A stretch of DNA of 41,465 nt from Lachnospiraceae bacterium (GCA_045593945.1 JAZNXQ010000256.1:1-41465); one strand, 5' to 3'. Positions 2,410 to 37,390 are shown, counted from the first letter of the stretch. Made by a program: numbers and translations. Notes: generated by a model not told the origin, from the letters alone.

Positions 2410-2438
2410 TTGACATTATATATAATTAATGCTATAAT
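2410..2438 (+). promoter_or_regulatory. Sigma-A promoter of the rplJ-rplL unit
   Basis: TTGACA (2410-2415), 17-nt spacer, TATAAT (2433-2438). Exact consensus. Confidence 0.7.
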
Positions 2439-2444
2439 GCAGAA

Positions 2445-2575
2445 TTGTGAATTGCCCAAGACAGTAGGTGCTTGATAAAAGCGTAAAGGTAACACGCCTA
2501 CCGAGGTAATGTAAGATCTTTTTAGAGCTTATAAGCCTATGCTGTTTTGGACAGGATAGGCTTTTCTGTTTATAT
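2445..2575 (+). promoter_or_regulatory. Ribosomal protein L10 leader (autoregulatory 5' UTR with attenuator hairpin)
   Basis: About 180-nt UTR between the consensus promoter and rplJ. It has a stem gtaggtg/cgcctac enclosing aaagcgtaa, which resembles the 23S rRNA GTPase-centre segment. A terminator-like hairpin agcctatgctgt/acaggataggct follows (2533-2563), then tttctgttt. The layout matches the Firmicutes L10 leader class. Confidence 0.6.
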
Positions 2576-2624
2576 AGCAAAGCCTTGTGTCTAACACATT
2601 AAATTTTAAGGAGGTGTATCGAAC

Positions 2625-18631: not shown

Positions 18632-18730
18632 AAAAAAAGAGCCTGGTCTTCGGACTTCTACTGCCCAGACGGTCGGCTCATCAAAGTTATACTCCCTGTG
18701 GTCAATTCCACTTCCGTCAGTTGTATAACC
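18632..18730 (-). promoter_or_regulatory. ZTP (pfl-motif) riboswitch with intrinsic terminator expression platform
   Basis: The minus strand reads GGUUAUACAACUGACGGAAGUGGAAUUGACCACAGGGAGUAUAACU-UUGAUGA-GCCGACCGUCUGGGCAG. P1 is GGUUAUAC/GUAUAACU and P2 is GUGG/CCAC. The 3' module CCGACCGUCUGGGCA can pseudoknot with GACGG. A hairpin GUCUGG...CCAGGC plus U7 follows and overlaps the 3' module. Confidence 0.75.
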
Positions 18731-18736
18731 AAGGCT

Positions 18737-29950: not shown

Positions 29951-31345
29951 GTGAAAAAGTTAAGATTCTATTTTGCATTATTTGCAGGAAAAATAATATA
30001 TCTTACAGAGAAGGCGTTGCACAAAAATGCAACGTTTTTTCCGGGTAGTATGGCAGTTAAGCTATGTCCCGATATTTTAAAATATTTTGATAAGCCGAAG
30101 CAGATAATCTGCATAACAGGTACTAACGGCAAGACAACCGTTACCAATATGCTTATAAGCTTTTACGAGAAAAAGGGTTACAGTATCGTGCATAATAGTT
30201 ATGGCTCCAATGTAGCGGGCGGGATTGTAACTTCTTTTTTGAAAGATTCTACTTTTACAGGCAAGTGCAAAAAAGATATAGCGATTCTTGAAGTGGATGA
30301 GAAGAGTAGCAGACTTGTGTTCCCTTATATGGAGCCGGATTGGCTCATTTGTACCAATCTTTTCAGAGATTCCATTAAGCGTAATGCTCATACGGAGTAT
30401 ATCGCGGGGATTTTGGACAAATACATTCCCAAGAAGACAAAACTTGTTGTTAATGCTGATGATTTAATCAGCAGCAGACTTGCAGAGGGTAATGAGCGCT
30501 TGTATTTCGGAATAGAGAAGCAGGAGAGCGAGTCGGGTAAGAACGACAGTCTCATAAGAGATATCAGCATTTGCCCGGAATGTGATACAAAGCTTGAGTT
30601 CGATTTTGTCAGATATCATCATATCGGACAGGCACATTGTCCTAAGTGCGGTTTTGCATCCGCTAAAAGCGATTATACAGTCACAGAAATCAAATACGAT
30701 GAAAATGTTGTTGCCATATCAGAAAAGGGCAGAATCGAGCGATATGAGCTTCTGTCGGGCAATATAGTTAATATATATAACCAGGTTGCCTGTGTGGCAT
30801 TACTTAAAGAGCTTGGTTTCAGCTCGGATGATATTAAGACATATCTTACCAAGGATAGTATTGTAGCATCGCGTTTTTCTGTCGTAGAGGCAGGATGTGT
30901 AAGAATTATGACACAGCTTTCTAAGGGAAAGAATTCCATTGCCTGTTCAAGGGCGCTTGATTTTATTAATCATTTCAATTCAAAGGCCAAGGCAGTTTTT
31001 CTTATGGTTGATGATTTGTATGAGGAAAAAGAAGGTTCCGAGAATACCTGTTGGTTGTATGATGCAGATTTCGAGTATCTTGCGCAGGATGAGGTTAAAC
31101 GTGTAGTTGTTGCAGGTGCGAGACATCTTGACCATAAGCTGAGACTTTTGATGGCGGGTGTACCGGAGGACAGAATCGTATGTGTGCTTGAGGAAAAGGA
31201 CGCGGTTGCGCCGCTTGTAGAAGCAGCAAAAGAACTCGGCGTAGATTCTATGTTTATATTACATGAAGTATTCGGATACCAAAGAGCTAATCAGGTAAGA
31301 GAATGCGTTAAGGAAAGGTTGGTGTCAGAGAATGCTTCGAATTGA
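29951..31345 (+). CDS. murT: Mur-ligase-family MurT (lipid II isoglutaminyl synthase ligase subunit homolog)
   Basis: P-loop ITGTNGKTT, NLFRD, a four-Cys ribbon CPECDTKLEFDFVRYHHIGQAHCPKCGF and a C-terminal WLYDADF (DUF1727-like). GTG start. Overlaps the next gene by 14 nt. Confidence 0.8.
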   Translation: MKKLRFYFALFAGKIIYLTEKALHKNATFFPGSMAVKLCPDILKYFDKPKQIICITGTNGKTTVTNMLISFYEKKGYSIVHNSYGSNVAGGIVTSFLKDSTFTGKCKKDIAILEVDEKSSRLVFPYMEPDWLICTNLFRDSIKRNAHTEYIAGILDKYIPKKTKLVVNADDLISSRLAEGNERLYFGIEKQESESGKNDSLIRDISICPECDTKLEFDFVRYHHIGQAHCPKCGFASAKSDYTVTEIKYDENVVAISEKGRIERYELLSGNIVNIYNQVACVALLKELGFSSDDIKTYLTKDSIVASRFSVVEAGCVRIMTQLSKGKNSIACSRALDFINHFNSKAKAVFLMVDDLYEEKEGSENTCWLYDADFEYLAQDEVKRVVVAGARHLDHKLRLLMAGVPEDRIVCVLEEKDAVAPLVEAAKELGVDSMFILHEVFGYQRANQVRECVKERLVSENASN

Positions 31346-32039
31346 AGTACTTTTTCCGGAGGTTTGTAACTTATACGGAGATATGGGCAATATCCAGTAT
31401 TTAAAATACTGTTATCCTGATGCCGAGTTTATTGAGACGGCACTTACCGAGACACCGGCATTTGCTACGTCCAAAGTGGATATGATATATCTTGGTTCAA
31501 TGACTGAAAGGCTTCAGGAAAAGGTTGTTGCCAAACTTAGCGAATATAAGGCCGAGTTTTCGGCATGTATAGATGACGGAACGGTTATATTGTTTACCGG
31601 CAATGCATATGAGCTTATGGGGGCGCATATAGAGGATGACGGCCGTAAAATACCTTGTCTTGGCTTCTTTGATTATTATGCCAAGCGAGATATGATGAAT
31701 CGTCATTTTAGCATAATCCTTGCTGAATTTGAGGGTATGGAGCTCGTTGGTTTTAAGGATCAGTTTACCATGTCCTATAATAATTCTGATGACACAGCTT
31801 TTATGAAAATTGTAAAAGGAGAGGGTTGGCATGACGGTGCCGCATTTGAAGGTGTGCGCAAAAATAACTTTTTTGGAACATACCTCCTCGGACCGTTTCT
31901 TATAATGAATCCGGGCTTTACCAAATATTTGATGAAGTTATTGGGAGACAATGAGCCGCAACTTGCTTTTGATGAAGCTATTACCGCGGCATATGAGAAA
32001 AGATTATATGAGTTTAAGACAAAATCAGTAATAAAATAA
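31332..32039 (+). CDS. gatD: GatD-like CobB/CobQ-type amidotransferase partner of MurT (apparently lacking catalytic Cys and His)
   Basis: N-terminal FPEVCNLYGDMGNIQYL and C-terminal GTYLLGPFLIMNP align to the GatD family. The nucleophile position reads TGNAYELMG rather than xCGGYQxxG. Confidence 0.75.
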   Translation: MLRIEVLFPEVCNLYGDMGNIQYLKYCYPDAEFIETALTETPAFATSKVDMIYLGSMTERLQEKVVAKLSEYKAEFSACIDDGTVILFTGNAYELMGAHIEDDGRKIPCLGFFDYYAKRDMMNRHFSIILAEFEGMELVGFKDQFTMSYNNSDDTAFMKIVKGEGWHDGAAFEGVRKNNFFGTYLLGPFLIMNPGFTKYLMKLLGDNEPQLAFDEAITAAYEKRLYEFKTKSVIK

Positions 32040-32083: not shown

Positions 32084-32461
32084 TTAATCTAAATATTCGC
32101 TGGAAGCTGACTGCGGAGAACGCATCGTACATGTTCCGTTGAGTATTGCGCCTTCATCTGCTATGAGGTTACCGCAAATAATACTTCCCTGAATGTTGCC
32201 GCTATGCGCAAGTTGGATGGTCTGCATGATGTCAAGGTTGCCTTCTACGATTCCGCAAACATATGCAAATTCAGCAGAAATATTACCTTTAACATAACCT
32301 GTTCCACCTATAACAATGCTTGAAGAACATTCAATGTCTCCAACAAATTTACCTGTAATTTTGATGGGTTCGGTGCTTTTTAAAAGTGCTACGGATAATT
32401 CGGTAGCATCACCGATAATTGTTCCGGGTTTGTCAAAATTGGGTTTCTTGATTTTTTTCAT
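32084..32461 (-). CDS. Bactofilin (polymer-forming cytoskeletal protein, DUF583)
   Basis: 125 aa of repetitive beta-helix pattern (ITGKFVGDIECSSSIVIGGTGYVKGNISAEFAYVCGIVEGNLDIMQTIQLAHSGNIQGSIICGNLIADEGAILNG). Confidence 0.85.
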   Translation of the reverse strand: MKKIKKPNFDKPGTIIGDATELSVALLKSTEPIKITGKFVGDIECSSSIVIGGTGYVKGNISAEFAYVCGIVEGNLDIMQTIQLAHSGNIQGSIICGNLIADEGAILNGTCTMRSPQSASSEYLD

Positions 32462-32478
32462 GTAATAATCCTCGTAAA

Positions 32479-33540
32479 TTAATCTAAATAATCAGCGGGG
32501 TCAACTTTCTCACCATTAACTAAGACTTCGTAGTGAAGATGTACGGCAGTACTTCTTCCTGTTCGTCCTGCAAGAGCAATGCAATCACCCTTGGAAACGG
32601 TCTCACCTTTTTTGAATAAAAGCTTCGTGCAATGTGCATATCGTGTAGAATATCCATAACCATGGTCGATTACGATGGTATAACCATAACCGGTTACGTA
32701 ACCGGAAGAAATAACTGTTCCGGAGGCTGTAGCATACAATTCCTGCTTGTACTTGGCAGCAAAATCAATTCCGTAGTGGAATTCTTTGCCTTTGCCGGTA
32801 ATGGGATTGGTTCTGTAGCCGTAAGGACAGGTTATTCTTGAGTCCTTAATAGGCCAGCCACTCGGTACAGATTCTATGTAAGGTACGTAAACATCAGTCA
32901 TCTCGGCTAAGGTGTTCATCGCCTGATAGTTCTCATCTAAAACAGTCTCTAATGAATTGAGCAATGATAAAATATCAGCATACTGTTTATCAAAGTCATC
33001 CAATGCCGACAAATAAGTGCTCGAGCTGCTTGATGAAGATAAAGGTGAAGATGAATTACCTACATCATAAGGGGTCTTACTTGCAGTAGTGTCTGAAGAG
33101 TAAATCTCGTCGGGAGCTTCGTTAAGCTTCTCGTAAATTGAATCACGTATTGCTTCAAGATTCTCAATCTTACTGAGTATCTCCTGAGTCTGACCCTCAA
33201 GTATATTAAGTTGTGCTTCTTTTTCTTCAATTGAACCGAGTAACTCATTAATGATAATATTCTTCTCAGACAATACGGCTTCAACAGAGGATTTCTCGGC
33301 TTCAACAAGCTTCTTCTGGTCCTGTACATATGAGATGTTCTGTTCCAAAGTATTAACGCGGTTCGTAAAGTTAGTATACACTGAACCAATGTAAAATCCG
33401 GCCACCAAAAGAAGTACCATAAATAATGGGAATATTACTTTGGGAATACGGAAATTTCTGCCTGAAGAAGAAGTTCTCGTAGTAACCATAAGTGATATGT
33501 AGCGGTCGGACTTAACGGAGTGTATCTTTGGCTTACGCAT
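32479..33540 (-). CDS. Membrane-anchored coiled-coil M23 (LytM) endopeptidase
   Basis: TM helix (VIFPLFMVLLLVAGFYIG), coiled coil, a Ser-rich linker, and an M23 domain with FHYGID and HLHYEV. The ATG at 33540 is preferred because a predicted promoter -10 (33606-33611) places the start site at or below the TTG at 33600. Confidence 0.8.
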   Translation of the reverse strand: MRKPKIHSVKSDRYISLMVTTRTSSSGRNFRIPKVIFPLFMVLLLVAGFYIGSVYTNFTNRVNTLEQNISYVQDQKKLVEAEKSSVEAVLSEKNIIINELLGSIEEKEAQLNILEGQTQEILSKIENLEAIRDSIYEKLNEAPDEIYSSDTTASKTPYDVGNSSSPLSSSSSSSTYLSALDDFDKQYADILSLLNSLETVLDENYQAMNTLAEMTDVYVPYIESVPSGWPIKDSRITCPYGYRTNPITGKGKEFHYGIDFAAKYKQELYATASGTVISSGYVTGYGYTIVIDHGYGYSTRYAHCTKLLFKKGETVSKGDCIALAGRTGRSTAVHLHYEVLVNGEKVDPADYLD

Positions 33541-33605
33541 TGAAACACACGCCTTTCCGTTTTCTAGTATTAATTTCCTATATCGTGATATAAGAGGCAA
33601 ACTCT

Positions 33606-33671: not shown

Positions 33672-33716
33672 AAAAATGCACCACAAACATCATGTGTAAC
33701 ATTTGTGGTGCATTTT
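33672..33716 (-). terminator. Terminator after the ABC exporter gene
   Basis: aaaaatgcaccacaaa ... tttgtggtgcatttt: a 13-bp stem with a 14-nt loop and flanking A/T runs, starting 2 nt past the stop codon. Confidence 0.65.
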
Positions 33717-33717
33717 G

Positions 33718-35496
33718 TTATCCGTGTATTAAATCATTGATTTCATTCGTGCCTAAAAGCCTGCATTGCTTATTGCTTATGCTGTAAACTCTTGTACAAA
33801 TATTAAGGACTGTGGGCCTGTGGGTTGTAACGATGGTAGTTCTCGGATATTGGTCATCCATAATATTTTTGAGAACCTGTCGTTCGGTCATAATATCAAG
33901 TGCCGAGGTGGCCTCATCAAGAAGAAGAATTGGTGAGCGCCTGAGTAAAGCTCTTGCGATGGAAAGACGTTGTGCCTGACCTTCGGAAAAACCGCCGCCA
34001 CGTTCTTTGATTTCGGTATTGATGCCATCAGGAAGTTTTTCAACAAAATTCCAAGCACAGGCAATCTTTAATGCCTCTATGATTTCTTCATCAGAAGCAT
34101 CTTCTTTTACGTTACGCATGTTGTCAGCAATTGTTCCGGAAAACATAGTGTTGCCTTGCGGAACATATGCAAAAAGCTGACGGGTGGATGCTGTCAGATC
34201 CATGCAGGGTTTGCCGTTTTCAGGTGTACCGTCTCCTGCACATATGAAACCTGCTCCTTCTTTTGCGCGGATAATTGATAGAATAAGTCGTAACATGGTC
34301 GTTTTGCCTTCGCCTGACGGACCGACAAGCGCAATCACTTCATGCGGGTGGGCATCGAAGGTTGCATTTTCAAAAACCTCTGTACCTGTTGCGTATGTAT
34401 ATGCGGCATTGCGGATGCTAAGGCCGATACCGACATTTTTATTGTTCTCAAAGAATTGCGCTACGTCGTCTTTTTGCGAGTAGTCTTCTTTGGGGAGAGA
34501 GAGAATACCCATTAGACGTTTGGCGGCATTTGTGAGCATTATTGTATTGGGAATAAAACTAATTAAATTATCTACGGATGAACTGAGTGTAGCTGAGAGT
34601 GCCAAAAACATTGTCATGGCACCGTATGTAATATCACCGTTCCAAACCTTATAAATTCCCCAACCGTAAGAGGAATATGTTACAAGTAAAGAAACTAGAG
34701 TAAGCACAAAACTGTTTAAAATTGAAGCTCGTTGATATTTCATACGAACATCGCTGTATTGCTTTTGTAAAATACGAAGTCTGTTTGAATAAAGTGGAAT
34801 CATATCAAAAGCTTTTACGGTATGTATATTAGAGAATGTTTCCTGGTTAAAGGTCGACAATTTTGTCCCGAGGGTCATGCTTTGCATATTATCTTTACGC
34901 ATTTTCTTAAGAGAAGCTTTGGATGCATAGATGCTTAAGGGAATGCTTATAAGAGCAAATATAGCAAAGGAAGCATCGTTGTACAAAACCATAATGAGCG
35001 CTGAAAAAAAGCGAAACAGATAAATTATAAGATTGGGAAGCATATTAAGTATTCCTGATGAAATATAACTTGCATCTCCGTTCCATCTGACAAGCAAATC
35101 GCCTGAATGAAATCTTGATAAAGATTCCCAGTCGGTTATAAGTATCTCGTCAAAAATCTGAGCCTTAATGTTATTATCGATTTTTATACTTATTCTGGTG
35201 GAAATATAATTAGAAATCTGGGTTATCAAAGTGCTGCCCAGTGTCATTCCAATCATTGCACAAAAAGTTGAAATAAGTTTGCCGGTATTATGCCCTGTTA
35301 TAATATCTACAAGGTCTCTTGAGACTAGGCTTCCGAGCAAGGTTATTAGCGTGCTTGAAAGTCCTAGGAGTGTATAAATACCGATAAAAAGATAGTATTT
35401 CTTTGCGTATTTATAAATCCATACAAGTTGAGAATATATTTCCTTGAGGCGTCCTTGCTTAATTCGAGTGATATAATGTTTGAGTTTTGATAACAT
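33718..35496 (-). CDS. ABC exporter, fused permease + ATPase (type I exporter; no C39 peptidase domain)
   Basis: 592 aa. Six predicted TM helices are followed by an NBD with GPSGEGKTT, FSEGQAQRLSIARA and ILLLDEATSALD. RBS GGAGGA. Confidence 0.88.
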   Translation of the reverse strand: MLSKLKHYITRIKQGRLKEIYSQLVWIYKYAKKYYLFIGIYTLLGLSSTLITLLGSLVSRDLVDIITGHNTGKLISTFCAMIGMTLGSTLITQISNYISTRISIKIDNNIKAQIFDEILITDWESLSRFHSGDLLVRWNGDASYISSGILNMLPNLIIYLFRFFSALIMVLYNDASFAIFALISIPLSIYASKASLKKMRKDNMQSMTLGTKLSTFNQETFSNIHTVKAFDMIPLYSNRLRILQKQYSDVRMKYQRASILNSFVLTLVSLLVTYSSYGWGIYKVWNGDITYGAMTMFLALSATLSSSVDNLISFIPNTIMLTNAAKRLMGILSLPKEDYSQKDDVAQFFENNKNVGIGLSIRNAAYTYATGTEVFENATFDAHPHEVIALVGPSGEGKTTMLRLILSIIRAKEGAGFICAGDGTPENGKPCMDLTASTRQLFAYVPQGNTMFSGTIADNMRNVKEDASDEEIIEALKIACAWNFVEKLPDGINTEIKERGGGFSEGQAQRLSIARALLRRSPILLLDEATSALDIMTERQVLKNIMDDQYPRTTIVTTHRPTVLNICTRVYSISNKQCRLLGTNEINDLIHG

Positions 35497-35513
35497 ATCT
35501 TATCCTCCGATAG

Positions 35514-35543
35514 AAAAATGCACCACTACCATAGTGGTGCATT
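35514..35543 (-). terminator. Intra-operon (attenuating) terminator between the 165-aa gene and the ABC exporter
   Basis: The minus strand reads aatgcaccactatggtagtggtgcattttt: a 10-11-bp stem, 4-nt loop and T5. The exporter RBS follows immediately. Confidence 0.65.
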
Positions 35544-35569
35544 AAAAATTATATCATGATATTGACTAT

Positions 35570-36067
35570 TTAGCTACAAAAATAACATTCAAGTTCGCAA
35601 TAATATTTGGTTGCATTATCTGCACCGATTGCACCATGCAATGGATTGCCGGCTGCATCATATGTAGGTGTGGAAGTAACTATCTCAAAATTAAAACCAA
35701 TATTATCATTGGCATTAAAGTGATTATTACGGGTTAAAGAAAACAATCGGGAATTATAATTAGTAATAATACAACCGCTTGCATTTTTTACTTCTACAAT
35801 ATCGAAATTTGTTTTAATAAATATAACAAGTGATTCGCCACTATGATTGCCATTGTGTTCGGCAAAGACATGACATACGGAGTGTCCGCCGTTGTTATGT
35901 CCGGTCCAAGTAAATTTCCAATTTACCCAACATTTCTGATCTTCATAAGCGGGAGGTGTCTCCGGCTGACCGGGATTCGGTGAAGAACCACTTCCTGCAT
36001 AAATTGCTTCTTTTGTATCATTAATATCAAGATCTAATATTTCTGCATAAAATTTATTTTCGCTCAT
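35570..36067 (-). CDS. Hypothetical 165-aa Cys/His-rich protein with leader-peptide-like N-terminus (candidate substrate/precursor)
   Basis: The ATG at 36067 lies 8 nt after AGGAGAG; the track GTG at 36076 abuts that RBS. The N-terminus MSENKFYAEILDLDINDTKEAIYAGSG is acidic and is not a Sec signal. A Pro/Gly linker follows, then a His-rich beta-type domain and a C-terminal CELECYFCS. Confidence 0.6.
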   Translation of the reverse strand: MSENKFYAEILDLDINDTKEAIYAGSGSSPNPGQPETPPAYEDQKCWVNWKFTWTGHNNGGHSVCHVFAEHNGNHSGESLVIFIKTNFDIVEVKNASGCIITNYNSRLFSLTRNNHFNANDNIGFNFEIVTSTPTYDAAGNPLHGAIGADNATKYYCELECYFCS

Positions 36068-36099
36068 TACAAACACTCTCCTAGTCTAATTATATCTGC

Positions 36100-36128
36100 A
36101 TTATAAGATTTTGCCTGTTACCTGTCAA
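36100..36128 (-). promoter_or_regulatory. Consensus sigma-A promoter dedicated to the 165-aa gene
   Basis: Minus strand TTGACA (36123-36128), exactly 17 nt, TATAAT (36100-36105), in the 88-nt gap after the upstream gene. Confidence 0.65.
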
Positions 36129-36155
36129 GGCTATCGACATTTTCTAACATAATTG

Positions 36156-37316
36156 TTAGCTTTTGTCTATGTATGAATCAATTACATTCCGTATATAAAA
36201 TACTGCGGTTTCGGTTGGAATTGCGTTAAAACGGCATACAAGTATATCGGGGTAAACTAAGTTTATAATATTAAAAATAGTTTCCTGCATATCATATGTC
36301 CATGAAGGAGAAATATTCCTGTGTAAAAGATAGAGAAGTTTCTGCTCATCTGTGAGAGATACAAATTCATTATCTTTTCCTTGCTGTAAAAGAATAATTC
36401 CGCCCAAAGGATAAGAAAATGTAGTGGATATTCCGGAAGTTCCGCACCATGGAATTCCATGGATCACAGGTGAGTTATCATTTATATCGATTAAGTTTAC
36501 GTCACCATTTAAGATAGGAATATTCAAAACAGAGTTCCATAGGTCAGTGTGGGTTGACTTGCCGACACCGGATGCTGCCGAAAACAGCCATGCATTATCT
36601 CTGTAAAGTATTGAAGCAGAATGTATGGCAAACATATTGTGAAGCCCGGCAAAGTATAGGAAAAGAATTTGCATAACTGAGAAGCTTTCCTGTTTACACT
36701 CTTCAGTCTGAGAATGTTTGCAAAGAATGGTGGCTTCTTTGCCGTCATGGCTTAAGTGTGCTTCCGTAATATATTTGAAAGCTGGAAATAATAAGCAATA
36801 TCCGGAGGTATTCTCAAGAATACAAAGCTCTTTGTTTTGTAAAATTAATTTGCCATTCTTGTTATATGGCTGCGTTTTGGTTTGTATGGAAATGCTTTGT
36901 GTAAGTTCAGATTCAAAAGAATCATCTGTTGTCTCAAATGCAAATAGTTTGTCGGAAAAACATTCTCTGTCGCCATATAATTTAATAAACAAACCAGCTA
37001 TCTTGAGGACTGCGCAAGGCGAGTCGTGCATGTCATAATCTTCGGGTAATAAAAGTTTTTGGTGGCGGAGTGCCGCAACAAATTTATGAATTGAATCTGC
37101 AATGTTGTCATAATCTTCTTTGGGACAATTATGTTCAGTTATATAAAGCGTTACCAATTCCTCTTCTGAAGAAACTGTTTCTAGTGCGTTCCACAAGAAC
37201 AGGCTGGTGTCATTCAAACGCAAATCATGCCCAAAGTCTGCTAATGCCTGCCCAAATGCAATCAGATAAGGCGTTCCGGATATAAATTTAAGTTGATAAT
37301 GGGGATTACGCTTCAT
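36156..37316 (-). CDS. PqqD-like (RRE) domain fused to an HPr-kinase-C-like P-loop domain
   Basis: Residues about 1-92 fit the PqqD pattern (LRLNDTSLFLWNALETVSSEEELVTLYITEH...IHKFVAALRHQKLLL). Residues about 225-330 carry HSASILYRDNAWLFSAASGVGKSTHTDLW...NGDVNLID, resembling HprK-C / RiPP-associated HprK-related kinases. The start is ATG 37316 or GTG 37325. Confidence 0.65.
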   Translation of the reverse strand: MKRNPHYQLKFISGTPYLIAFGQALADFGHDLRLNDTSLFLWNALETVSSEEELVTLYITEHNCPKEDYDNIADSIHKFVAALRHQKLLLPEDYDMHDSPCAVLKIAGLFIKLYGDRECFSDKLFAFETTDDSFESELTQSISIQTKTQPYNKNGKLILQNKELCILENTSGYCLLFPAFKYITEAHLSHDGKEATILCKHSQTEECKQESFSVMQILFLYFAGLHNMFAIHSASILYRDNAWLFSAASGVGKSTHTDLWNSVLNIPILNGDVNLIDINDNSPVIHGIPWCGTSGISTTFSYPLGGIILLQQGKDNEFVSLTDEQKLLYLLHRNISPSWTYDMQETIFNIINLVYPDILVCRFNAIPTETAVFYIRNVIDSYIDKS

Positions 37317-37361
37317 TGGTATCACCGCTTTCTGCTTTATTGAATGACAATTCTTAATTAT

Positions 37362-37390
37362 ATTATACTATTTTTTTATAATTAAGGCAA
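37362..37390 (-). promoter_or_regulatory. Putative promoter of the PqqD-kinase cassette
   Basis: Minus strand TTGCCT (37385-37390), 17-nt spacer, TATAAT (37362-37367). Confidence 0.5.

Follow-up and report, generated by a model that had tools for sequence, protein, structure and literature searches.

What does a bacterium do with a locus that encodes an enzyme, a small protein and a pump, and little else? The question is raised by a stretch of 41,465 nucleotides from a Lachnospiraceae bacterium (GCA_045593945.1 JAZNXQ010000256.1:1-41465; hereafter, the window), in which three genes between positions 33,672 and 37,390 encode a protein of 386 residues, a protein of 165 residues and an exporter. 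From the DNA alone, an original prediction had read them as a modification and export system of the kind that produces peptides synthesized on ribosomes and modified after translation (RiPPs), guided by a RiPP recognition element (RRE) and without a match among described systems. The first part of this reading is supported by the synteny of the genes, the modular leader of the substrate and the homology to the lpp cluster, but the second has to be given up, since the cassette falls in or next to the recently described family of linear polyphosphorylated peptides (LPPs; PMC13381572). We consider, with a probability of roughly two in three, that it constitutes a minimal, fused-domain variant of an LPP-type RiPP pathway.

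LPPs were described in soil Bacilli (Popov et al., Nat Commun 2026, published in May 2026; PMC13381572), and the family was originally discovered through its SipW/archaeal-type SpI-like peptidase, LppS. According to that work (PMC13381572), the precursor LppA has 35-200 residues, with a conserved N-terminal YxxPxVLxHQxIxFETxxS and a variable C-terminus; LppK is an HprK-like kinase that transfers up to four phosphates onto Ser3 of the LppA core; LppB is a discrete RRE of the PqqD type (PDB 9x8z); LppS is a SipW-like leader peptidase that requires LppB; LppD is an MsbA-like exporter; and LppN is an NTP-transferase of the PF14907 type. The unphosphorylated precursor is poorly cut, and both the RRE and LppS are needed for cleavage (PMC13381572). 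The clusters often lie within capsule loci and next to lasso clusters of the paeninodin type, and the surrounding capsule genes obscure what the end product is (PMC13381572). The lppA-K-B-S-D-N locus of Paenibacillus alginolyticus DSM 5050 (L010) was taken as the reference and its genes were compared directly with those of the window, with the result that every component of the window cassette has a homolog in it. What is known in this cassette is, in short, the LPP family; what is new is the fusion of the RRE to the kinase, the lack of a protease and an NTP-transferase, the folded and protein-sized core, and the host, which belongs to the Clostridia.

A conserved and compact cassette

The three co-directional ORFs (open reading frames) that had been predicted on the minus strand were all found in the window. 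The first gene (36156..37316, minus strand, stop codon included) encodes the 386-residue protein, composed of an LppB-like and an LppK-like domain, and starts with the ATG at 37316, which is the one used by all homologs (an alternative GTG is located at 37325). It is followed by the gene for the LppA-like precursor of 165 residues (35570..36067, minus strand, stop codon included), with an AGGAG ribosome-binding site 7 nt upstream, and by that for an ATP-binding cassette (ABC) exporter of 592 residues (33718..35496, minus strand), an MsbA/LppD-like half-transporter. The motifs cited for the first two proteins could be read again (HSAS…SGVGKST…NGD in the fusion, ILDLDI…AGSG…CELECYFCS in the precursor), and the exporter indeed carries no C39 peptidase domain: Pfam places ABC_membrane at residues 39-308 and ABC_tran at 376-531, so that a start at residue 39 leaves no space for it, and peptidase-containing ABC models align to the protein only from model position ~140-170. 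Its best NCBIfam match is MsbA_rel, and its similarity to LppD (28 % identity over 490 residues, E 1e-50) is weakly discriminating, as ABC exporters as a class are similar at that level. Genes of this kind are now labelled “PqqD family protein” and “hypothetical protein”, for which this analysis supplies a working annotation; a PADLOC scan for anti-phage defence systems returned generic ABC-ATPase matches only.

The gene-neighbourhood comparison that had been proposed shows the cassette, with its gene order unchanged, in five different genomic contexts (the window, L006/L007, L001/L002, L008 and L009). All three ORFs are intact in at least five contexts, and also in ~40 sequence clusters whose identities span 47-98 %. 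Measured against the L006 orthologs, the ratio of non-synonymous to synonymous substitution rates (dN/dS) amounts to 0.10 in the fusion, 0.16 in the precursor and 0.06 in the exporter. All three genes are under purifying selection and, because of these values of 0.06-0.16, the cassette is not decaying. It is also the smallest form seen, with enzyme, substrate and pump only. Searches by tblastn with three Lachnospiraceae proteins for an LppS-like peptidase gave none in the 41-kb window or in L001, L006, L008 and L009, those for a PF14907 NTP-transferase gave none in the window or in these same compact loci, and the window and the four others likewise lack a discrete RRE gene. A peptidase gene in another part of the genome would be compatible with this outcome. 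The compact subclade is thus without all three, and peptidase, discrete RRE and NTP-transferase form a block that behaves as a module of its own.

Could such a reduced set of genes simply be what is left of a full LPP-type cluster, decaying after the loss of its protease and its NTP-transferase and yielding no functional product? The lack of a SpI-like peptidase, a discrete RRE and a PF14907 protein in the window and the four other compact loci would be in line with that, and so would the leader of the window precursor, which has lost the Tyr and Pro anchor residues. However, the intact ORFs in several contexts and ~40 clusters and their low dN/dS values, the invariance of the catalytic residues, the conservation of promoter and hairpin, and the acquisition of a Pro-rich linker and a lengthened core by the compact subclade, which points to adaptation, make a remnant very improbable.

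An RRE fused to an LppK-like module

The PqqD-type RRE occupies residues 1-95 of the fusion (37032..37316, minus strand), as judged from Pfam PqqD, structure-profile and hhalign matches. With Pfam PqqD, homologs of the fusion score 27-44 bits. A profile of the N-terminal domain, compared with solved structures, matched RREs only, with LppB as the best of them (9x8z_B, E 0.0065) and TbiB1 and PbaB1 also among them, while the same search with single proteins gave nothing. Aligned by hhalign, the profile of the fusion family matches LppB at 90.4 % (E 1.4e-6). The Asn of LppB that fixes the kink of the leader (N33; PMC13381572) has a conserved equivalent in the RRE of the fusion.

The remainder of the protein (residues 100-386; 36159..37019, minus strand) is an LppK-like module of HprK/PEPCK fold, made up of a beta-rich N-subdomain and a P-loop domain, whose Walker-A motif is read from the sequence as S249-G-V-G-K-S-T255 (36552..36572, minus strand). 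An AlphaFold2 model of the fusion reaches a pLDDT (predicted local distance difference test) score of 90.9, and in Foldseek its best matches are ATP-dependent PEPCK and HprK/P (E 5e-6 to 1e-4). The fusion of a PqqD domain with an HprK-like domain had therefore been recognized correctly at the level of the fold, with PqqD also found in homologs. Concerning the hidden Markov models (HMMs) through which it was to be verified, PqqD is marginal in the window protein and present in its homologs, and the rest are not reached: Hpr_kinase_C (PF07475) has no match in the window fusion or its homologs, Hpr_kinase_N has none in the window fusion, and NCBIfam has none for the window fusion either, be it TIGR04352, TIGR04355 or ScmC, while the homologs score 12-20 bits with HprK_rel_A and 11 bits with HprK_rel_B (both with a cut-off of 200). 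The absence of Hpr_kinase_C is not counted here against a kinase function because the validated kinase LppK has no Pfam match either. In the reference locus, and with the Pfam copy searched, this applies to LppK (L010 9144-9929) as well as to LppS (L010 10164-10640), which implies that standard domain annotation misses the LPP pathway.

The assignment is carried by the direct comparison with LppK, which the fusion profile matches at 98.5 % in hhalign (E 1.8e-15), over 142 columns that relate residues 228-374 to LppK 114-259. When the ORFs of 28 Bacilli LPP loci were scored with the fusion-family HMM, LppK homologs reached 35-61 bits, whereas the kinases of lasso clusters, encoded a few kilobases away in the same loci, reached 16-18 bits; similarly, LppB homologs scored up to 35 bits and PbaB1 homologs at most 22 bits. 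Among 49 fusion homologs, H232, S233, S235, G250, G252, K253, H256, N270, G271, D272 and N274 are invariant, as are P289-W-C-G292, R333 and W339, and the alignment also shows P-W-C-G-T-S. The family is large, with 678 representative clusters at 50 % identity (E <= 1e-30), the top 150 of which are nearly all full-length (378-420 residues), and its confirmed stretches in metagenome contigs number at least 569.

An alternative reading is that the HprK/PEPCK-fold domain of this family does not phosphorylate proteins. Its substrate for phosphorylation or adenylation might be something other than a protein, it might work as a phosphorylase, or it might hold or unfold its cargo at the expense of ATP, the RRE serving only to deliver that cargo. 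Such a role would fit the lack of any Pfam or NCBIfam kinase model at threshold, an Asp-containing capping motif unlike those of LppK, PsmK and HprK, the rank of PEPCK above HprK/P in Foldseek, and the holdase that export of a folded domain could require. Yet the validated LppK escapes Pfam too, the profile-profile match to it is strong and covers the whole catalytic domain, the His and the P-loop Lys are invariant, and the precursor carries an invariant Ser at the position equivalent to the LppK target, so that we regard a non-kinase role as unlikely.

A folded protein behind a RiPP-type leader

In agreement with the idea that the 165-residue protein belongs to no well-characterised family, its 42 close homologs are all unnamed and without Pfam domains, and many of them share contigs with fusion homologs. 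A profile search with both precursor types (that of the compact loci and that of the extended ones described below) extends them to a superfamily of at least 499 proteins of 126-176 residues. Residues 1-27 (MSENKFYAEILDLDINDTKEAIYAGSG; 35987..36067, minus strand) are taken as the leader on the basis of family conservation and of their disorder in the AlphaFold2 model, where residues 1-35 are disordered and the leader has a pLDDT below 50. The leader consensus of the superfamily is M-K-N-Y-E-K-P-V-V-L-V-N-E-E-L-A-E-G-V-Y-A-A-S-G. In the window, its anchor F6-x-x-E9-x-L11 is a degenerate form of the YxxPx[VL] motif of the family, and its end, E20-x-x-Y23-A-G-S26-G27, is intact. It had originally been likened to the leader of lantibiotics, but it is of the [Y/F]xxPx[L/V] type found in lasso peptides and LPPs; a lantibiotic-like leader with C39 processing was discarded, given the missing C39 domain and the YxxP-type leader.

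Throughout the superfamily, only E20, Y23, S26, G27, H71, N87, N118 and G124 are invariant. S26 (codon at 35990..35992, minus strand) is the only invariant Ser, both in 36/36 (A5) and in 43/43 (A3) family members, and is for this reason the predicted phospho-acceptor, in parallel to Ser3 of LppA. The conserved Ser is located 19-20 residues past the aromatic anchor, and the phosphorylated Ser3 of LppA 18 residues past its own. The original analogy with lasso peptides, in which the C-terminal Ser would be phosphorylated, is unlikely to hold, as the C-terminal residue is not conserved: it was rejected as a kinase target after finding S, G, C, N, R, T or F as the last residue in compact precursors and His in extended ones.

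After a Pro-rich linker (residues 28-45), variable in the family, comes the folded core (residues 46-165; 35573..35932, minus strand), which AlphaFold2 predicts as an eight-strand beta-sandwich with a pLDDT above 90 across the domain, consistent with the folded beta-rich domain anticipated for this protein. The core contains the conserved motif WTGHNNGGHSVCHV.A.H..HSG, is rich in His and Cys, and has cysteines at both ends of the domain (C46, C157 and C164). Its His/Cys cluster is located at residues 56-77 (about nt 35837-35902), in which H71 is invariant superfamily-wide; within the compact family, H57 and H62 do not vary and H75 hardly does. Extended-type cores terminate in C-N-x-x-C-x-Q-H. 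From the sequence conservation, this cluster hints at a metal site or at disulfides. In Foldseek, CBM2 modules, which bind cellulose and chitin, head the matches to the core (6qfs at E 5e-4, then 3ndy and 2rtt), although the resemblance is modest (TM score 0.4 on the query and 0.6 on the target). Membership of CBM2 was rejected, since the likeness is one of fold only and the sequence has no Pfam match.

Extended relatives and a portable leader

More distant homologs of the fusion (~40 % identity) sit in larger clusters, which comprise a divergently transcribed SipW/archaeal-type S24/S26 peptidase, the fusion, the ABC exporter, a PF14907 NTP-transferase and a precursor of ~140 residues with the same leader; two of them additionally contain a Wzx-like membrane protein and a Stealth protein. 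The accessory proteins are related to those of the lpp cluster as well: the peptidase of L003 is 30 % identical to LppS (E 7e-10), and the NTP-transferase of L005 is 25 % identical to LppN (E 3e-5), each of these two NTP-transferases matching PF14907. To describe these clusters, 80 metagenome loci with fusion relatives were collected (L038-L117, mostly from human gut), 23 of them with enough flanking DNA. The ABC exporter is present in all 23, a leader-bearing precursor in 22, a SpI-like peptidase in 21 and the NTP-transferase in 16. Each locus holds from one to three copies of the precursor (e.g., L054 11030-12357 and L080 11136-12354). An extra, discrete RRE of ~90 residues lies beside the peptidase or the NTP-transferase in at least 14 of the 80 loci, including L044 (11608-13599), L051, L058, L072, L075-L078 and L087, where it is placed between the two, which suggests that each enzyme of the extended clusters has its own RRE. 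The compact cassette would have lost the entire block.

A total of 64 ORFs of 61-151 residues carry a leader ending in EGVY[A/L]ASG, and the cores behind it fall into four mutually unrelated classes, none with a Pfam domain: a beta-sandwich with CYTVTA…HQTP…RIQV, a domain with QGTLNVTY…WGTNGGKG, a Cys-rich class with KYMNG…FGC.GCP, and a short Cys-rich one. Because a constant leader precedes unrelated cores, it is best understood as a recognition and processing tag, in agreement with what was described for LPPs.

These observations lead to a wider idea, which we put forward only tentatively and consider rather doubtful: gut Lachnospiraceae may apply the logic of RiPPs to whole small proteins, by means of a portable leader of ~24 residues, an RRE-LppK-like fusion that places an N-proximal (poly)phospho-Ser on unrelated folded domains (60-150 residues, at least four core families), and a dedicated ABC exporter. 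If this were true, it would represent a widespread, Sec-independent pathway coupling modification to secretion, with a three-gene form that dispenses with leader removal, and the phosphate tag might be a handle for attachment to cell-surface polysaccharides or for metal or glycan binding.

Expression signals and composition

How would the three genes be expressed? The promoter originally proposed upstream of the fusion gene (TTGCCT-17-TATAAT; 37362..37390, minus strand) is present as a 10/12 sigma-70-like match, but it is a consensus match only, and such matches are no more frequent in the region than in shuffled sequences. A perfect 12/12 sigma-70 promoter (TTGACA-17-TATAAT; 36100..36128, minus strand), missing from the original prediction, lies directly upstream of the precursor gene, in the 79-nt gap that separates it from the fusion gene. 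At the same intergenic position, a TTGACA -35 box with a -10-like hexamer is found in L006, L001 and L009, and TTGACG in L008. Likewise unmentioned before was a hairpin with a 12-bp stem (-16.9 kcal/mol) and a U-run between the precursor and ABC genes (35517..35543, minus strand), which is likely a partial terminator or attenuator. With this promoter before it and the hairpin behind it, the precursor gene has the classic arrangement by which a structural gene comes to be expressed more strongly than that of its exporter. The terminator predicted after the ABC gene (33672..33716, minus strand) was confirmed as a stable fold (-24.5 kcal/mol, z = -5.85) followed by UUUUU.

In every compact locus (L001, L002 and L006-L009, with positions 9811-9830 in L001, 7126-7146 in L006, 7791-7811 in L008 and 7782-7801 in L009), the intergenic hairpin has the same arms, GCACCAC…GTGGTGC, even though the flanking intergenic DNA diverges; they are absent from extended and Bacilli loci and recur in the terminator after the ABC gene of the window. 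With a stem so constant, a purely structural role finds no backing in covariation, and the element could alternatively be a site for protein binding or RNA processing. No known RNA family was matched within the cassette in Rfam.

The layout also resembles that of a bacteriocin operon, in which a structural gene has a strong promoter of its own, is followed by an attenuator hairpin and is accompanied by an ABC exporter, and the cassette could accordingly be read as the export system of a large bacteriocin. The 165-residue protein would then be a toxin, the ABC protein would serve for export and self-protection, the RRE-kinase would mainly be a leader-binding chaperone or activator, and the killing activity of the core, rather than its phosphorylation, would be what matters. 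Conflict systems typically show what is seen here, hypervariable cores behind a constant leader, in one to three precursor genes per locus; the cassette occurs patchily and in varied genomic contexts; and the authors of the LPP study themselves remark on an evolutionary dynamism typical of conflict genes (PMC13381572). Nevertheless, the cassette has no immunity gene, neither LPPs nor paeninodin nor pseudomycoidin are known to be antimicrobial, the invariant catalytic motifs of the kinase favour an enzyme over a pure chaperone, and the core resembles carbohydrate-binding beta-sandwiches and not known toxins. On balance, a bacteriocin appears improbable.

Regarding composition, the GC dip that had been reported for the cassette is real but was overstated, as it amounts to 2-5 points and is not unique within the window. 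The GC content is 0.372 in the fusion, 0.355 in the precursor and 0.391 in the ABC gene, compared with 0.406 for the window, 0.433 for rpoB and 0.424 for the gene of a GH74-like protein, and values just as low (0.346-0.348) occur in other 1-kb stretches of the window. The GC content at third codon positions (GC3) deviates for the precursor gene only (0.235, against 0.34-0.40 for its neighbours and rpoB/rpoC), the fusion and ABC genes being within the rpoB/rpoC range. Horizontal transfer was therefore rejected as a conclusion from composition (a dip of 2-5 points, matched elsewhere in the window, with ordinary GC3 in the fusion and ABC genes). The horizontal acquisition originally inferred from the dip thus has weak compositional evidence, although the varied genomic contexts of the cassette do suggest mobility.

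Proposed mechanism and its weak points

Under the reading as an LPP variant, the 165-residue protein would be transcribed from its own strong promoter, with the hairpin after its gene attenuating read-through into the ABC gene. Its leader of ~27 residues would be bound, in the form of a beta-strand, by residues 1-95 of the 386-residue enzyme, its PqqD-type RRE, and the tethered LppK-like domain would then move one or more phosphates from ATP to Ser26, at the junction of leader and core. An MsbA-like ABC homodimer would export the product, consisting of the Pro-rich linker and the 120-residue beta-sandwich. Since the subclade encodes neither peptidase nor NTP-transferase, the leader would be either retained or cut by a protease from another locus, and one would not expect phosphate-linked glycosylation. 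What the analysis shows is the gene content, the domain homologies, the synteny, the modularity of the leader, the purifying selection and the regulatory signals, and it is by analogy with the LPP and paeninodin/pseudomycoidin systems that we infer leader-RRE binding, kinase activity, Ser26 as its site, export, what becomes of the leader and what the product does.

Several observations weigh against this interpretation. Residues 35-92 of the window fusion score 23.0 bits with Pfam PqqD, just under the threshold of 23.4, and the kinase activity predicted for the fusion family goes with a metal-binding, Asp-containing capping motif that reads N-G-D in the fusion, S-D-E in LppK and D-D in PsmK. 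In the binding of LppA by LppB, the hydroxyl of the leader Tyr and the Pro are important, and LppB D70 hydrogen-bonds the leader Tyr (PMC13381572); the window leader, F6-Y-A-E9-I-L11, has neither the Tyr hydroxyl nor the Pro of YxxP, and the same is true of its closest relatives. The residue equivalent to D70 is Asp in 5/6 pairs with a leader Tyr and in 1/7 with a leader Phe, a co-variation that is suggestive of direct contact as supporting evidence only, given that the 13 pairs are not phylogenetically independent. Furthermore, the spacing between anchor and Ser is 1-2 residues longer than in LppA, the lack of an in-cluster peptidase means that the end-point of the pathway may differ from that of the published LPPs, and an MsbA-like exporter would have to let a folded domain of 120 residues pass. 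Even so, the remnant, the non-kinase and the bacteriocin explanations each fit the evidence less well than the LPP variant.

What would follow from an LPP-type pathway in these bacteria? The LPP-type machinery would constitute a large unnamed family in gut Lachnospiraceae, with the RRE fused to the kinase and with small folded proteins, not short peptides, as substrates. The minimal cassette would offer a clean system in which to address the RRE-guided polyphosphorylation of Ser on a folded domain, the need for leader removal and the purpose of the phosphate, which the LPP study could not do on account of the surrounding capsule genes.

Surroundings of the cassette and other features of the window

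Directly downstream of the cassette (32084-33600, minus strand) there are genes for an M23 peptidase, whose N-terminal region is a long coiled coil, and for a bactofilin, and the same M23/bactofilin pair follows the cassette in L006 (9130-10569) and L007. The upstream neighbour differs: it encodes a GH74-like/Sortilin-Vps10 protein in the window and a GH3 enzyme in L006/L007. With downstream neighbours in common and upstream ones that are different, the insertion point is bracketed in the window and L006/L007.

Elsewhere in the window, and unrelated to the cassette, Rfam identifies a ribosomal protein L10 leader (2437-2576, plus strand, 64 bits) and a ZMP/ZTP riboswitch (18656-18734, minus strand, 55.5 bits). 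On the plus strand, positions 29951-32039 contain a MurT-like gene (Mur ligase middle domain and MurT_C) and an overlapping CobQ-type glutamine amidotransferase, which together look like a MurT/GatD pair for lipid II amidation.

Comparison with known systems

Several other families share parts of the cassette. Unlike the exporters of double-glycine peptides, which belong to the C39-ABC type, the window ABC transporter has no N-terminal C39 peptidase domain. With HprK/P, the fusion shares the fold of the catalytic domain (Foldseek E 2.5e-5 to 1e-4, TM score ~0.5 on the target) and a P-loop arranged with a His upstream and an Asp downstream, but the identity is ~13 %, there is no Pfam match to Hpr_kinase_C or Hpr_kinase_N, and substrate and genomic context are different.

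The fusion is also formally a combination of ScmD-like and ScmC-like parts, as in SynChlorMet clusters, with which it shares the HprK/PEPCK P-loop fold group; many fusion homologs carry precomputed Pfam matches to PF27840 (ScmC) and PqqD, those to PF27840 being marked weak or faint. Against the NCBIfam models, however, the homologs score 13-19 bits with ScmC (TIGR04249, cut-off 125) and 17 with ScmD (TIGR04248, cut-off 100), and no radical-SAM/SPASM partner gene is present in any locus examined. A literature search on ScmC and SynChlorMet retrieved unrelated acronyms only, and we know of no function for ScmC.

Closer are the paeninodin and pseudomycoidin lasso clusters, which likewise pair a B1-type PqqD RRE with a YxxP-type leader and have a PF14907 protein and an ABC exporter (PMC6993621). 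Their HprK-fold kinases, PadeK and PsmK, (poly)phosphorylate a Ser of the precursor, and PsmN is the NTP-transferase (PMC6993621). In contrast to the window family, whose C-terminal residue is not conserved, lasso kinases act on a C-terminal Ser, and they score 16-18 bits with the fusion-family HMM as opposed to the 35-61 bits of LppK homologs. Neither a lasso cyclase (the Asn-synthetase-like C protein) nor a B2 protease is found among the cassette genes or their immediate neighbours, while the cyclase is plainly visible in L010 (13668-15608).

The closest system is thus that of the LPPs. Neither in its text nor in its supplementary tables does the LPP paper mention an RRE-kinase fusion, and the only two Lachnospiraceae entries that it lists have discrete RREs and lie outside the cluster it studied (PMC13381572). 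The differences are substantial: the RRE of the window is fused N-terminally to the kinase, whereas lpp has discrete genes in the order K-B; its subclade has no LppS, LppN, discrete RRE, adjacent lasso cluster or capsule locus; its core is a predicted beta-sandwich of 120 residues, compared with a core of ~45 residues in LppA, of low complexity and rich in Gly, Asn and Pro; its leader ends in EGVYAGSG and that of LppA in FET|AQS; and the hosts are gut Lachnospiraceae (Clostridia) instead of soil Bacilli. As to the likeness, the window cassette contains an LppK-like kinase, a PqqD-type RRE and an MsbA-like exporter; its precursor family has a [Y/F]xxPx[V/L] leader, a conserved Ser near the junction of leader and core, and a variable C-terminal part; and its extended relatives in Lachnospiraceae add the SipW-like peptidase and the PF14907 protein, some of them adjoining Stealth and Wzx-like capsule genes.

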